64,000 nt of DNA from assembly GCA_964187785.1 (NCBI GenBank), contig OZ076409.1, positions 62,001 through 126,000 on the forward strand. The letters are read 5' to 3'. The stretch is from Amphiscolops sp. MND2022. Lineage: Eukaryota. The notes under the pieces were generated by a model, which had not been told where the DNA came from, ran no database searches, and was given only the letters and a program-made list of their open reading frames with translations. The translations under genes and the position numbers were made by a program. Shown piece by piece: positions 33,490 to 37,420 of the stretch (position 1 is the stretch's first letter; every line of letters begins with the position of its first letter).

Positions 33490-36216
33490 CTATGGCGGAG
33501 GAGTGAAAAAGTCAGAATGATTAGTTTGAAAAGATGGCGGAGTGAAGGAGTAATTTGTTTTTGAATATATGCGGACAGGAGCGTCGATCTCGTCATTGAC
33601 AGGTGATGTGTAATCATTTGGATTTGTGGTAACTGAAGTATAATGTGGTAAAGATGATTGAGGATTAGATTTGGAATGAACATTATATTGTTTTCGTTTT
33701 GGAAGGAATTTAAAACGAGTCATTTTGGAAATCCGATTTGGACGTTTTGTATAAAAAGGTGGTGGTGAAGTAATACCAGTTGGATTTGGAGTAGTACCAT
33801 TTGGATCATTTAGATTATAAGAAGATTCATCTAATGGGTTGTCAGTAATGTTTGACATTTGTTGTGAACTTTTAGAAGTTGATTTTGAACGAACATTTTT
33901 TAGGTCATGGAGCATGTCTGCCGTAAGAATATTAAGAAAACCATGGGCAATAGAGTTCAAAAGTGTAATATTTTGTTTAAGATTGTACTTTATGGAAATA
34001 GTTTTGTATAATTTAACAATGAGAGTTAACATTGTTTGTATGAAAAGATATGTGGAAAAATAAATTCCACATTGTGTCAAAATGTAACATGGATATCCAA
34101 ATAAAGCGATGAAGGCATCAGAGAACCATGTAGGAGTAAAAAGGGGAGTTAGGTTAATTAATCTATCATGGAGTCCAATCCGGAGTGTATTATATGGGTT
34201 ACCATGTGGTTCATTTGCATCATAATCAGGTGTATTAGAAGAAATAAAGGAATAGCTAAGAGCTTTTCCTAAGAGTTGAAGTGTAGTATCAGAGTGTTTT
34301 GAAAATAGAATTCGATTCCAAAATTGATTTAGTTCTGCATTTGAGTATATACCAGCATCTTGAGCGGTAAAAGTATTAGGGCGTATTGTAGTTTTAATTT
34401 GAGAAGGAGTAAACATAAGTGGAGGTTTTCGTTTTATAGGTTCGGGTCCAAGAATATAAAAATCTTGGTCATCAGAATCAGGATCAAGTTCAATAATGTT
34501 ATTCGGGTTATTGTCACATGTAATAGGAGTGGCATAGTCATATGTTTGTCTTGTAATTGGGTCGACGTACATAAGAGTATCCTTGAAGTGAATAGGAATG
34601 CGATCGAAACATCGATCAGCAATGTATAACGGTGAAAGGAAGTGTGGACAGTCATATAACCAAGCAGTAGATCCTTCGACGTAAAGGAAATTACTGCGAT
34701 TGCCTGTTAGAAGAAAGCCAGCAAGTTGAGGATTTTGTACCGACATTGCAAGTATTGTAAGAAGTTGATTGCGTTCTAATTCACATACTGTATGAAGGGT
34801 ATTAAGTTCTTGAACAGTCATTGAACGAAATACATGGTTAATCGTGTAGTCAATTTTAGTGTTTATATGTGCATCGTAATCTATTGTAGCAAAATTGTTT
34901 GAAACGTTCAATGCAGGAAAGATGTATTTATTATTAGAGTTTGATTTGTCTAATACAATTTTACCAGAGATGTATTCATTAATTATAGAAGTGGGGTTTG
35001 GTTGTCCTGTATGCATGTTAAATCCTTCTGTGTAAGTAACAAAAAGGTCAGAATATTGAGTAGAATATAGAGGTTCAGGTTTTCCACAAAAGGTGTTAGC
35101 GGTAGGAAAGATTTCAAAACGAGAAAGACTTGGGTTATGTGGAGTTTCAGTATGAGGAGCACGAACGTGCGGATAAGAAGTACCTTTGATACCATCAAAG
35201 GAAGGTGATTTCTTTGGAGTAGCAGAGTGTACGAAAGAATCAGTTTCTATCCAGTATCGATCATCTATTTTGGTCATGCGTCCAATAAAGTCTTGTAAAG
35301 TAAAGATAAGACAAAAGTCATCACTAAACCATACAAGTGTGAAAGGAGTTTTTGTGGTAGGTTTGCAAAAACCATCAGCAAAGTAACATGGGAGAGTATG
35401 ACCATCAATGATCATAACATTTTGTGTATCATCGTATGTTAGTTCAATTTCAGATATAGCGAGACGCCAACTTACTAAGTTGACTTCAAATTGGTGATGA
35501 GCAGGACAATTATGGTAAGGGTTTCGAAGTGGATCATATATCCAAGTTTTGTCAGCGGGCATATAGGTAAATGTACCTGTATACATTTTGTTGAATTGGT
35601 AAACAGTGAAAGGAGTTTGAAATCGTTCTAATTGTTCTTGAAAGTAGTGGTCTTCAAGTAGTGTAAAAGTTTTGTTATAGTTAAGATTGTTCAATATTTT
35701 ATTATCAGTTCCATTAAGGTGTCGAATAATATTTTTACATTCAAGAGGATCAAGTGTGATAGGTAGTGGCATTGTATTGTGATTCCAAACAGTTCTGTCA
35801 ACACGTCTGTATTTAACATTACCTTGGAAGCAGATTTTTCGTTCTTTTTTTGCATATGCTTCACATTTGAAAGCGCGAATACGTTTAGCTTTTGCTCTAA
35901 CATAAACTCGAGCTTGAATGTTTGCATGTTGTATGTTAGAAGGAGCTTCGGTACATTGTTTGACATTGAGAAGATTAAATTGACGAAGATTATGTTGTTT
36001 TGCACAGTCATAATGGGAAACCATGAGATTTGTTATATTTGGGTCATCAGATGGAAGATATTTGTCATCATCTGTTGGTTTGATAGGAATGGAAGATGTA
36101 ATATAAGGGTTGATAGAAAAGAGAAATATATGAGTTATAATAAGTAGAACATGTGTTTTAAAAGGAAGTTGTATATTTGAGACCAGAGAAGGGGTTGTAG
36201 AAGACAATTTTGCCAT
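33490..36216 (-). CDS. env: Envelope glycoprotein resembling chuvirus-type (class III) fusion proteins
   Basis: N-terminal hydrophobic segment, HYDC motif, Cys-rich ectodomain with N-glycosylation sequons, CELERNQL...NP...CFDRIPI...VDPITR block, C-terminal TM and long tail. Confidence 0.8.
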   Translation of the reverse strand: MAKLSSTTPSLVSNIQLPFKTHVLLIITHIFLFSINPYITSSIPIKPTDDDKYLPSDDPNITNLMVSHYDCAKQHNLRQFNLLNVKQCTEAPSNIQHANIQARVYVRAKAKRIRAFKCEAYAKKERKICFQGNVKYRRVDRTVWNHNTMPLPITLDPLECKNIIRHLNGTDNKILNNLNYNKTFTLLEDHYFQEQLERFQTPFTVYQFNKMYTGTFTYMPADKTWIYDPLRNPYHNCPAHHQFEVNLVSWRLAISEIELTYDDTQNVMIIDGHTLPCYFADGFCKPTTKTPFTLVWFSDDFCLIFTLQDFIGRMTKIDDRYWIETDSFVHSATPKKSPSFDGIKGTSYPHVRAPHTETPHNPSLSRFEIFPTANTFCGKPEPLYSTQYSDLFVTYTEGFNMHTGQPNPTSIINEYISGKIVLDKSNSNNKYIFPALNVSNNFATIDYDAHINTKIDYTINHVFRSMTVQELNTLHTVCELERNQLLTILAMSVQNPQLAGFLLTGNRSNFLYVEGSTAWLYDCPHFLSPLYIADRCFDRIPIHFKDTLMYVDPITRQTYDYATPITCDNNPNNIIELDPDSDDQDFYILGPEPIKRKPPLMFTPSQIKTTIRPNTFTAQDAGIYSNAELNQFWNRILFSKHSDTTLQLLGKALSYSFISSNTPDYDANEPHGNPYNTLRIGLHDRLINLTPLFTPTWFSDAFIALFGYPCYILTQCGIYFSTYLFIQTMLTLIVKLYKTISIKYNLKQNITLLNSIAHGFLNILTADMLHDLKNVRSKSTSKSSQQMSNITDNPLDESSYNLNDPNGTTPNPTGITSPPPFYTKRPNRISKMTRFKFLPKRKQYNVHSKSNPQSSLPHYTSVTTNPNDYTSPVNDEIDAPVRIYSKTNYSFTPPSFQTNHSDFFTPPP

Positions 36217-37420
36217 AAGCTAGGTCGTTTAATTCAGGATCACGGTTGAAATCGACGAATATTACTTCAAAAGGAGCAGGAGTAGTTTTGTGTTCAATTT
36301 TTGCAACGTGAAATATGGGGTGTGGATTAAGACCTTGAAACTTAACTTTGACTTCAAATTTTATTTCTAGATTTGGAGTTTGGAGTCGTTTTAATTCAGT
36401 TTCTTTTCGTTTATGTGAGAGAGAGTTATTTGTGGTAATAAAGCGTTCGGCTAAGAGAGGGAAACGGGGATCGTTTTGAGGATCATATATAGTAACGCCG
36501 TCTACACGTAAAGGGTAGTCTGCGAAATTAGGAGTAGGTGGTCTTGATTGATCATATGTGTAGTATTCAGGTATTCGTACGTGAGGAGCAACAGGTGTAG
36601 GTACTAAGACTTCAGAGAAGAGGTTGCCAGATAAATATGCAGTTTGTACGTCCGATGAAAGTAATGAAGCTGTGTCTAATCCAGAAGTGAGATAAGATTG
36701 TGGAACAAAATCAGAAGAGTGTGCTGTATCAGAAGATAAAGGTTGAGCGTGTTGTCTAAGAAGGCGTAATGCTGAGTTGCTAGAAAGTGCTGAAAAATTA
36801 AGAGTTGATGAGTCTGTTGCACTTAGGCGTCTATTGGGAAGAGGTCTGAGATTATATCTGTGATGTGGTACTATATCAGAACCTGAAGTATCAGTTTGTG
36901 GTAAATATTCTGAAGGAGAGTCTATTAAGTTGGAAAGAGAAGTGGAAGGATGTCTAAGTGGTTTTAAAGGAGGGTAAAGTTGAGATGGGTTTGAAGATTC
37001 AGATGGTAAGTGTAATGTAGGTAGAGGTGTGTATTCAATATCAGATAGTGGTACAATATCTAATTTAGATGGAAGGTTAGGTGAAACACGGGCTGTTTTA
37101 ATAGCAGTTGGTTGTTTGTAATTTACAAGATGTGCTACAGTATGAGGATGTGGTATGTGGACAAATGACGGTTGAGATCGAGAGCGAGGAGTATAAGGTA
37201 TTTCAGCAATAGGTGGTCTACTAATGTGAGTTGAATGTGTATGAGAAGATGGTGTTGGAGAGGTAGTTATAATGTGAGATCTTGGTCGTTTTGAAGGAGT
37301 TATTGGTGTTACATTACTATTTGTAGTTGTGTTCGAAACAGAGGATTCAGATGGAGAAGGTATATTAGGAGCAGAGGGAGATGTTTCAGATGAAGAATCC
37401 AGATTGGTGGGCCAGTTTGA
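36158..37420 (-). CDS. AUG-less open frame of about 420 codons, Ser/Pro/Thr-rich, with PSAP and LYPPL motifs; not in the ORF track
   Basis: No stop between TGA at 37421-37423 and TAA at 36158-36160. No in-frame ATG; CTG at 37402 in ACCAATCTGG context. Confidence 0.7.
   Translation of the reverse strand, partial: SNWPTNLDSSSETSPSAPNIPSPSESSVSNTTTNSNVTPITPSKRPRSHIITTSPTPSSHTHSTHISRPPIAEIPYTPRSRSQPSFVHIPHPHTVAHLVNYKQPTAIKTARVSPNLPSKLDIVPLSDIEYTPLPTLHLPSESSNPSQLYPPLKPLRHPSTSLSNLIDSPSEYLPQTDTSGSDIVPHHRYNLRPLPNRRLSATDSSTLNFSALSSNSALRLLRQHAQPLSSDTAHSSDFVPQSYLTSGLDTASLLSSDVQTAYLSGNLFSEVLVPTPVAPHVRIPEYYTYDQSRPPTPNFADYPLRVDGVTIYDPQNDPRFPLLAERFITTNNSLSHKRKETELKRLQTPNLEIKFEVKVKFQGLNPHPIFHVAKIEHKTTPAPFEVIFVDFNRDPELNDLAYGKIVFYNPFSGLKYTTSF

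Follow-up and report, generated by a model that had tools for sequence, protein, structure and literature searches.

The window analysed here comprises 64,000 nt of the Amphiscolops sp. MND2022 genome (GenBank assembly GCA_964187785.1, contig OZ076409.1, positions 62,001 to 126,000), and all coordinates below are positions within it. Its minus strand carries a long terminal repeat (LTR) element of 17,846 bp (29380-47225) with gag, pol and env genes and, between pol and env, a long open reading frame (ORF), here called ORFx, that standard gene callers miss because it has no AUG. The two LTRs, each of 423 nt and spaced 17,423 nt, differ by a single mismatch at the outermost base. Pfam domains were found along the 2695-residue gag-pol product in the Ty3/gypsy order: Retrotrans_gag (residues 651-723), RVT_1 for reverse transcriptase (RT; 1535-1659), RT_RNaseH (1722-1854) and, for integrase (IN), Integrase_H2C2 and rve (2179-2346). 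The env product matches the Pfam family PF24664, Monjiviricetes_fusion (E 8.9e-23; 80.5 bits, cut-off 27), while a sequence search matched it to no solved structure. Paired LTRs, a gag-RT-RNase H-IN order and an env of the fusion-glycoprotein kind are thus all present, and by these sequence features the element is an env-carrying Ty3/gypsy type (Metaviridae, errantivirus-like) with a class III-type env. The element is young; its LTRs are identical over 422 nt, and near-identical copies exist. The composition of its sense strand is 34% A, 31% T, 25% C and 9.9% G.

An original prediction, made from the letters of this DNA, had proposed that ORFx is a hidden gene of about 420 stop-free codons encoding an S/P/T-rich matrix or budding protein. 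Its coordinates were right, the feature lying on the minus strand and being read from 37420 to 36158. Counting gave exactly 420 codons with no in-frame ATG, GTG or TTG and a single CTG, at 37402, which has the A at -3 (37405) and the G at +4 (37399) that had been described. The predicted overlap with the start of env was also found, amounting to 59 nt when env is read from its ATG (62 nt of open env frame). Since low G makes both stops and starts rarer, the chance tests were made with the low-G composition kept. Under these conditions, with a per-codon stop frequency of 0.048-0.053, the probability of 420 open codons was ~1e-9 to 1e-10, and none of 5000 simulations under a first-order Markov model had 420 codons open. 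The chance that such a frame would lack ATG, GTG and TTG was ~7e-5, and ~0.02 for the lack of an in-frame ATG alone. The next longest off-frame sense ORFs in the element have 202 and 113 codons.

Conservation of the frame in sister copies had been named as a check, and the frame proved to be open both in young copies and in deeply diverged lineages. In the host genome (1.07 Gb) the young family has at least 100 copies with 99-100% identical protein, and the 420-codon frame was open in all 100 copies scored (of 8,970 first-look candidates). By hand counts of match tables, 74 of 99 rows were without stops in an older group ~65% identical to the window protein, as were 92 of 95 and 71 of 109 rows in groups ~36-40% identical to it. 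Ten copies from four deep lineage groups were then read at the DNA level, nine with an intact ORFx and the tenth broken. In all 21 pairs of the seven closer lineages the Nei-Gojobori ratio of nonsynonymous to synonymous divergence (dN/dS) in the ORFx frame was 0.04-0.16, at synonymous divergence (dS) of 0.24-1.7; the same alignments read in the two other frames gave 1.5-4.0. The differences concentrate at third codon positions (for example 58/23/146 at positions 1, 2 and 3), and constraint is strongest in the last 230 codons (dN/dS 0.06-0.15, against 0.2-0.46 in the first ~130). Because an open frame of this length has a chance probability of ~1e-9, because low dN/dS is specific to its frame and because the frame is kept in diverged lineages, the comparisons identify ORFx as a genuine, selected protein-coding gene, present in thousands of copies.

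By the same comparisons the ORFx family is old, with four lineage groups down to about 33% identity in the host genome. A profile search of 1.84 billion proteins returned 291 matches, all of the same family. Two database homologues lacked a close copy in the host genome (P0222, best 52% identity; P0266, none at E <= 1e-60), an absence that is not firm since the search scored best candidates only; it suggests that the family is perhaps also present in other genomes. Some copies (lineage L056 and database protein P0106) have ORFx joined in frame to env past the signal-peptide region, with 478+ codons open; they probably represent decayed copies that vary by indels.

The beginning of the gene could be placed by comparing lineages. 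A CTG with A at -3 and G at +4 stands at the identical site in 10/10 lineages, exactly where amino-acid conservation begins; the conserved sequence there is (I/N)-L-D-S-S-S, with CTG as the leucine codon. CTG is otherwise rare in ORFx, accounting for 4 of 395 other leucine codons (1.0%), and the conserved one is the sole CTG codon in five of the nine intact frames, the remaining four carrying one more. None of the nine contains a methionine codon. Upstream of the CTG the open frame is not conserved and varies in length, with a stop 2-44 codons away (in one lineage, only two codons before the CTG). The pol frame ends 79-128 nt before the CTG, and its frame relation to ORFx differs between lineages. 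As the CTG is conserved at the point where conservation starts, the frame upstream is unconserved and closed, and methionine is lacking, the most economical reading is that translation probably starts at the CUG at 37402. The original prediction had offered CUG initiation or splicing: the former is supported by the comparison of ten lineages, whereas splicing as a source of an AUG finds the frames upstream closed.

Other routes into the frame were considered. A frameshift or readthrough from pol is excluded, as the two frames do not overlap and their relation varies between lineages. An upstream exon supplying an AUG is unlikely, given that the window copy has stops in all three frames ahead of the CTG and that no AG is conserved after it: across the lineages compared, there was none in the first ~45 nt. 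An AG does occur in the spacer before the CTG (37447-37446, minus strand), inside an AGTCAC motif that is kept in six of seven close lineages and lies 44-110 nt before the CTG; it may be a 3' splice site for an mRNA holding ORFx and env. Consensus scores for splice donors in the 5' leader could be listed, with no meaningful ranking among them. A hairpin ~14 nt after the CUG was rejected, its stem of 4-5 bp being found in six of nine lineages, neither in the window copy nor in the deep ones. A conserved 47-nt block with a GTTATC..GATAAC inverted repeat lies ~20-65 nt upstream of the CTG in six lineages; it was rejected as an essential element, since the window's lineage has lost it. Around the CTG itself, the sequence is partly palindromic (ATCC-T-GGAT). 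Database homologues of ORFx begin with 'M', while the matching DNA lineages in the host genome have no ATG there; most likely a gene caller put this 'M' for TTG or a codon like it.

The stretch between the CTG and the env ATG measures 1186 nt in the window copy and 1.16-1.34 kb across nine lineages. Only three ATGs remain in this interval in any frame, where 11.2 +/- 3.3 are expected under the Markov model (P 0.005). They begin at 37314 (an ATG-TAA start-stop), 36555 (17 codons) and 36486 (11 codons). Over 333 sliding segments of 1204 nt along the element the mean was 18 ATGs, and the minimum of three was reached in just two places, this interval and the 5' leader ahead of gag; the S/P/T-rich region of Gag has even less G, yet it contains 11 ATGs per 1.2 kb. 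In all nine lineages the density was 0.7-3.4 ATGs per kb before the env ATG versus 11.8-27.8 per kb directly after it, and the tenth, broken copy is ATG-free for 1.58 kb. The residual ATGs in the nine lineages open upstream ORFs (uORFs) of 1-46 codons, mostly with a pyrimidine at -3, and every one of these stops 234 nt or more ahead of the env ATG; the commonest consists of ATG and TAA alone, a start-stop that a conserved Asn-Val pair imposes. Each lineage group has a signal-peptide-like segment after the env ATG, and among the lineages compared ORFx and env always abut or overlap. The depletion of ATGs between the CTG and the env ATG is real and affects every frame.

Such a depletion in all frames up to the env ATG points to co-expression of ORFx with env by leaky scanning on one mRNA, the best-supported mechanism and one that we favour slightly. 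What is found corresponds to what leaky scanning would need, namely an upstream start that appears to be non-AUG or weak, and few, harmless AUGs up to the downstream start. On this model an mRNA holding ORFx and env would begin at an internal promoter, or be spliced in, just downstream of pol and after its last ATG (37520). The CUG, in strong context (A at -3, G at +4) but an inefficient start, would let most scanning ribosomes pass; with the next 1.2 kb nearly free of AUGs, those ribosomes could reach the env AUG. A single mRNA would then give little ORFx and more Env.

The ORFx product has two predicted parts. Residues 1-290 from the CTG consist of 42.8% serine, threonine and proline, compared with 20.2% in the last ~124, in line with the S/P/T-rich product that had been described. 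AlphaFold2 gave a predicted local distance difference test score (pLDDT) of 37.7 for the full-length protein. For residues 270-420, with an alignment of 28 sequences reaching 34% identity, the pLDDT was 81.9 and the predicted template modelling score (pTM) 0.64; this confident fold prediction bears out the earlier impression of a globular C-terminus. The protein is thus modelled as about 290 disordered residues followed by a confidently predicted domain of ~120 residues. The fold prediction, which had been suggested as a check on the last ~150 residues, led to no known fold: Foldseek found no match in the PDB (best E 0.31) or in BFVD (best E 0.066), and VIA-align over 48,161 chains gave a best Z of 4.0, with none >=5. 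The lack of a match still leaves room for a matrix-protein fold. Searches with ORFx sequences were likewise negative against Pfam (the 28 aligned homologues gave only stray matches, E >0.01), against the PDB by sequence profile, against the ESM Atlas (no usable match), and against the element's own Gag-Pol, Env and downstream ORFs (best E 1.3). The disordered arm holds conserved islands (PTAIKTxR, KRPR, HxYNLR, RLxRQHAQ and PPTPN..YP) kept down to 31-40% identity.

Two short motifs in this arm had been proposed as late domains, and both stand where they had been placed: PSAP near the start of the open frame and LYPPL mid-way, within the region of pLDDT below 50. They also passed the conservation check that had been suggested for them, and so are not incidental. 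[LI]YPxL occurs in 10/10 lineages, and YPxL in 53 of the 62 database homologues that cover the site. P[ST]AP is found at the same place, 9-10 residues after the CUG, in 8/10 lineages, including two deep groups. When the disordered region was shuffled, LYPxL arose by chance in 1.6% of cases and P[ST]AP in 6.8%. The PPxY motifs reported for the element's other proteins were found as well, PPFY in the env tail (env residue 820) and PPHY in Gag (Gag-Pol residue 932). [quoted passage not shown] Given the joint conservation of YPxL and P(S/T)AP, a link to ESCRT is the best functional guess, and it is plausible, if tentative, that ORFx is an ESCRT adaptor; encoded apart from Gag and adjoining env, it may bring TSG101 and ALIX to the budding sites of enveloped particles or of Env-bearing membranes. 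The 'matrix/budding protein' of the original prediction is a tentative reading of these short motifs.

The features of the locus are collected in the following table.

Table 1. Features of the LTR element and of ORFx (window positions).
Feature	Position	Strand	Details
5' LTR	46803..47225	-	direct repeat with 29380-29802
gag-pol open frame	37482..45569	-	2695 codons; first in-frame ATG 45557; TAA 37484-37482
Spacer from pol stop to CTG	37403..37481	-	closed in all three frames; in-frame TGA 37423-37421
ATG-poor zone	36217..37517	-	last pol ATG (37520-37518) to env ATG; 3 ATGs left
ORFx open frame, stop to stop	37420..36158	-	420 sense codons; TGA 37423-37421, TAA 36160-36158
ORFx coding sequence from CTG	36158..37402	-	414 codons + TAA
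Proposed CUG start of ORFx	37400..37402	-	A at -3, G at +4; CTG in 10/10 lineages
Predicted disordered S/P/T-rich region	36524..37399	-	AlphaFold2, full length; pLDDT <50, residues 1-314
PSAP motif	37367..37378	-	residues 15-18 of the open frame; 9-12 from CTG
LYPPL motif	36965..36979	-	residues 148-152
Predicted C-terminal folded domain	36161..36523	-	two helices, then a five-stranded sheet
env frame, stop to stop	36219..33490	-	909 codons
env gene	33490..36216	-	ATG 36216-36214; 908 codons; signal-peptide-like N-terminus
Open frame downstream of env	32002..33315	-	437 codons; has ATGs; no Pfam or family match
Open frame before 3' LTR	30958..31536	-	192 codons; has ATGs; no Pfam or family match
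3' LTR	29380..29802	-	direct repeat with 46803-47225

The idea that ORFx is open by accident, G-poor sequence having few ATG, GTG or TTG starts and few TAG or TGA stops, draws on the 9.9% G of the sense strand and on the 202-codon off-frame ORF inside gag. It is refuted by the improbability of the open frame even at the same composition and by purifying selection specific to the ORFx frame; a frame kept in homologues down to 31% identity and a confidently predicted C-terminal domain also speak against it, and we give it practically no credence. As to expression, ORFx could have an mRNA of its own, with env coming from another mRNA, spliced to an acceptor immediately ahead of the env ATG; insect errantiviruses express env through a subgenomic RNA that is spliced. 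The scarcity of ATGs would then be a by-product of a methionine-free, S/P/T-rich protein in a G-poor genome, and a CUG start would still be possible. Composition alone does lower the expected number of ATGs from 18, the element mean, to 8-11, and all residual ATGs are forced by conserved N-V or Y-D residue pairs. However, the depletion exceeds what composition (P 0.005) and codon order (P 0.02) would give, recurs in four deeply diverged groups and stops abruptly at the env ATG, whereas the comparable low-G disordered region of Gag is not depleted; it is also unusual in itself that no intact lineage has a single methionine in its more than 400 codons. We consider separate mRNAs unlikely. Still less probable is a coupling in which ribosomes that finish ORFx terminate and reinitiate at the env AUG. 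The constant abutment or overlap of the two genes would suit it, as would an env ATG only 3-5 nt past the ORFx stop in two deep lineages, but in the group to which the window copy belongs the env ATG is found 56-62 nt upstream of that stop. To reinitiate after translating 414 codons, ribosomes normally depend on special factors or tethering motifs, of which none were identified; such a coupling would make Env output hang on an inefficient CUG start, and it leaves the depletion of ATGs in the other frames unexplained.

As to function, ORFx could be a regulatory or host-interaction accessory protein without a budding role, such as an RNA export or expression factor or an antagonist of host silencing, with PSAP and YPxL serving other partners or being incidental. 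This is a substantial possibility, though short of an even chance: at least four other islands are equally conserved (KRPR, HxYNLR, RLxRQHAQ and PPTPN..YP), the C-terminal domain matches no known fold, Gag has a PPHY of its own, and the element, at 17.8 kb and with at least two other ORFs that lack an explanation, is reminiscent of a complex retrovirus. What it must account for is the presence of two canonical late-domain motifs at fixed places across lineages that are 31-40% identical, of which chance, to judge from the shuffles, is a poor explanation. Alternatively, ORFx could be a matrix-type gene captured from an RNA virus along with the class III glycoprotein. Mononegaviruses carry their M gene directly upstream of G, just as ORFx directly precedes an env that matches the Monjiviricetes fusion-glycoprotein family, and the matrix proteins of rhabdoviruses and filoviruses have N-terminal late-domain motifs followed by a folded domain, as in ORFx. 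Nevertheless, no similarity in sequence or fold to viral proteins was found (BFVD, best E 0.066; PDB, none), the profile search of 1.84 billion proteins found the ORFx family only, and the composition of ORFx is fully that of the element. Capture from a virus is very improbable.

The best overall explanation appears to be a gene started at CUG, with leaky scanning to env, whose product may act as an adaptor for ESCRT factors, and we put the probability of this combined reading at about 0.5. Several points weigh against it. The lineages share ancestry, so the ten in which the CTG is conserved are not ten independent trials, and in the lineages compared no conserved hairpin was found downstream of the CUG. 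Measured against shuffled ORFx codons, the depletion of ATGs in the window copy is modest (3 versus 8.1; P 0.02), and the zone is ATG-poor rather than empty, with 1-4 ATGs in each of the nine lineages. The motifs are 4-5 residues long, and of the conserved islands in the disordered arm, about six in all, they account for just two; one deep lineage lacks PSAP, and a close one has it in altered form. By eye, no myristoylation or acylation site and no evident membrane-binding patch were seen in ORFx; the folded domain matches no matrix protein or other known fold in PDB, BFVD or VIA-align searches; and Gag carries its own PPHY. A more far-reaching proposal is that these invertebrate env-carrying Ty3/gypsy elements are 'complex' retroviruses with a dedicated, Gag-independent budding factor, a matrix-like ESCRT adaptor kept at a fixed low ratio to Env because a bicistronic mRNA would be translated from the CUG and, by leaky scanning over 1.2 kb, from the env AUG; we regard this as doubtful.

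Several observations concern the rest of the element and its surroundings. The 437- and 192-codon frames between env and the 3' LTR may encode further accessory proteins. Gag-Pol starts (44670-45557, minus strand) with a segment of ~280 residues, followed by a region of ~350 residues rich in S, P, T, N and Q before the recognisable Gag domain; residues 1-296 have no Pfam match. The 202-codon frame (42533-43141, minus strand) overlaps the gag zinc-knuckle and Arg/Ser-rich region in another frame; it exceeds the length expected from composition, and the sequence there is of low complexity. Low G (9-10%) on the sense strand is common to the element and every related lineage, with the long ORFs all intact, and the plus-strand GC skew reaches 0.63 across the element family. 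This G-poverty looks like an adapted, family-wide composition and not like recent hypermutation, and it may reflect long-term cytidine-deaminase pressure on the cDNA. A direct repeat of 123 nt (96% identical) flanks the element on both sides (regions 28268-28390 and 47260-51277), and the second of these regions contains an RT_RNaseH fragment on the plus strand (48511-49056); the element may thus be nested in an older retroelement. Elsewhere in the window (8513-13336, plus strand), adjoining ORFs match a packaging ATPase of the Pox_A32-like kind (E 3.7e-5) and an integrase core of retroviral type (E 1.1e-8), a pair that suggests a Polinton/Maverick-like element.

Invertebrate env-carrying LTR retroelements are currently described as gag-pol-env, a picture that a fourth conserved and selected gene would change. 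We know of no account of how such retroelements assemble and leave the cell outside Drosophila, and ORFx is a concrete candidate for the egress step. AUG deserts can also be used, from sequence alone, as a signal for hidden non-AUG genes upstream of env in other elements. A conserved CUG in good context has a counterpart in the glyco-Gag of murine leukaemia virus, a CUG-initiated N-terminal extension of an AUG-initiated protein. ORFx resembles it in having such a codon in a retroelement and would differ in relying wholly on CUG.

The kind of element described here is already known. Env-carrying Ty3/gypsy elements, termed 'ancient errantiviruses', are widespread in invertebrates and have env genes of the F type or the class III, gB/Chuviridae-like type (Chary & Hayashi, eLife 2026, PMC13524379, main text). 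The present element shares with them its LTRs, a gag-pol with the RT-RNase H-IN order, an env that matches a family of viral fusion glycoproteins and many near-identical copies in the host genome. That text describes gag, pol and env only, from a screen that allowed a pol-env gap of up to 1000 nt; here the gap is filled by a conserved gene of 1.26 kb in an element of 17.8 kb with ORFs past env. No accessory ORF, late domain or non-AUG start was found in the main text of PMC13524379, whose supplements might list related elements, and a review, in its cited passage, names only the place 'between pol and env' as one where LTR elements can pick up ORFs (PMC6431247). As far as our searches show, what is new is the conserved gene in the pol-env gap: in the literature searched we found no published description of it or of its non-AUG start.

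The proposed mode of expression has its closest parallels in plant and primate viruses, as portrayed in the cited sections of PMC5902531. Rice tungro bacilliform virus (RTBV) begins ORF I at an AUU and keeps ORFs I and II free of AUGs, with leaky scanning over 900 nt. RTBV and the badnaviruses resemble the arrangement proposed here in their non-AUG upstream start, in about 1 kb free of AUGs, in tolerating short uORFs of weak context, and in a downstream gene that starts at the first proper AUG. They are plant pararetroviruses whose pregenomic RNA is translated after shunting, whereas the present element is an LTR retroelement of an animal, with env as the downstream gene, CUG in place of AUU as the putative start, and a postulated mRNA. 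No published description of an RTBV-like scanning arrangement in an animal LTR retroelement was found in the literature searched; if the proposed arrangement is correct, this would be, as far as searches show, the first animal LTR retroelement to use an AUG-free ORF with leaky scanning. The vpu-env mRNA of human immunodeficiency virus type 1 (HIV-1) and the rev-env mRNA of simian immunodeficiency virus (SIV) likewise yield Env by leaky scanning past an accessory ORF, as proposed here (PMC5902531); their upstream ORFs are short and AUG-started, whereas ORFx has 414 codons and no AUG. Finally, the motif pair of ORFx, set in a predicted disordered and proline-rich segment, is that of HIV-1 p6 and of p9 from equine infectious anaemia virus (EIAV), for which the cited passages of PMC2651531 and PMC2958808 report PTAP and LYPXnL. 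In those retroviruses the late domains are part of Gag, whereas here, to judge from the sequence, they would sit on a separate protein whose gene adjoins env.

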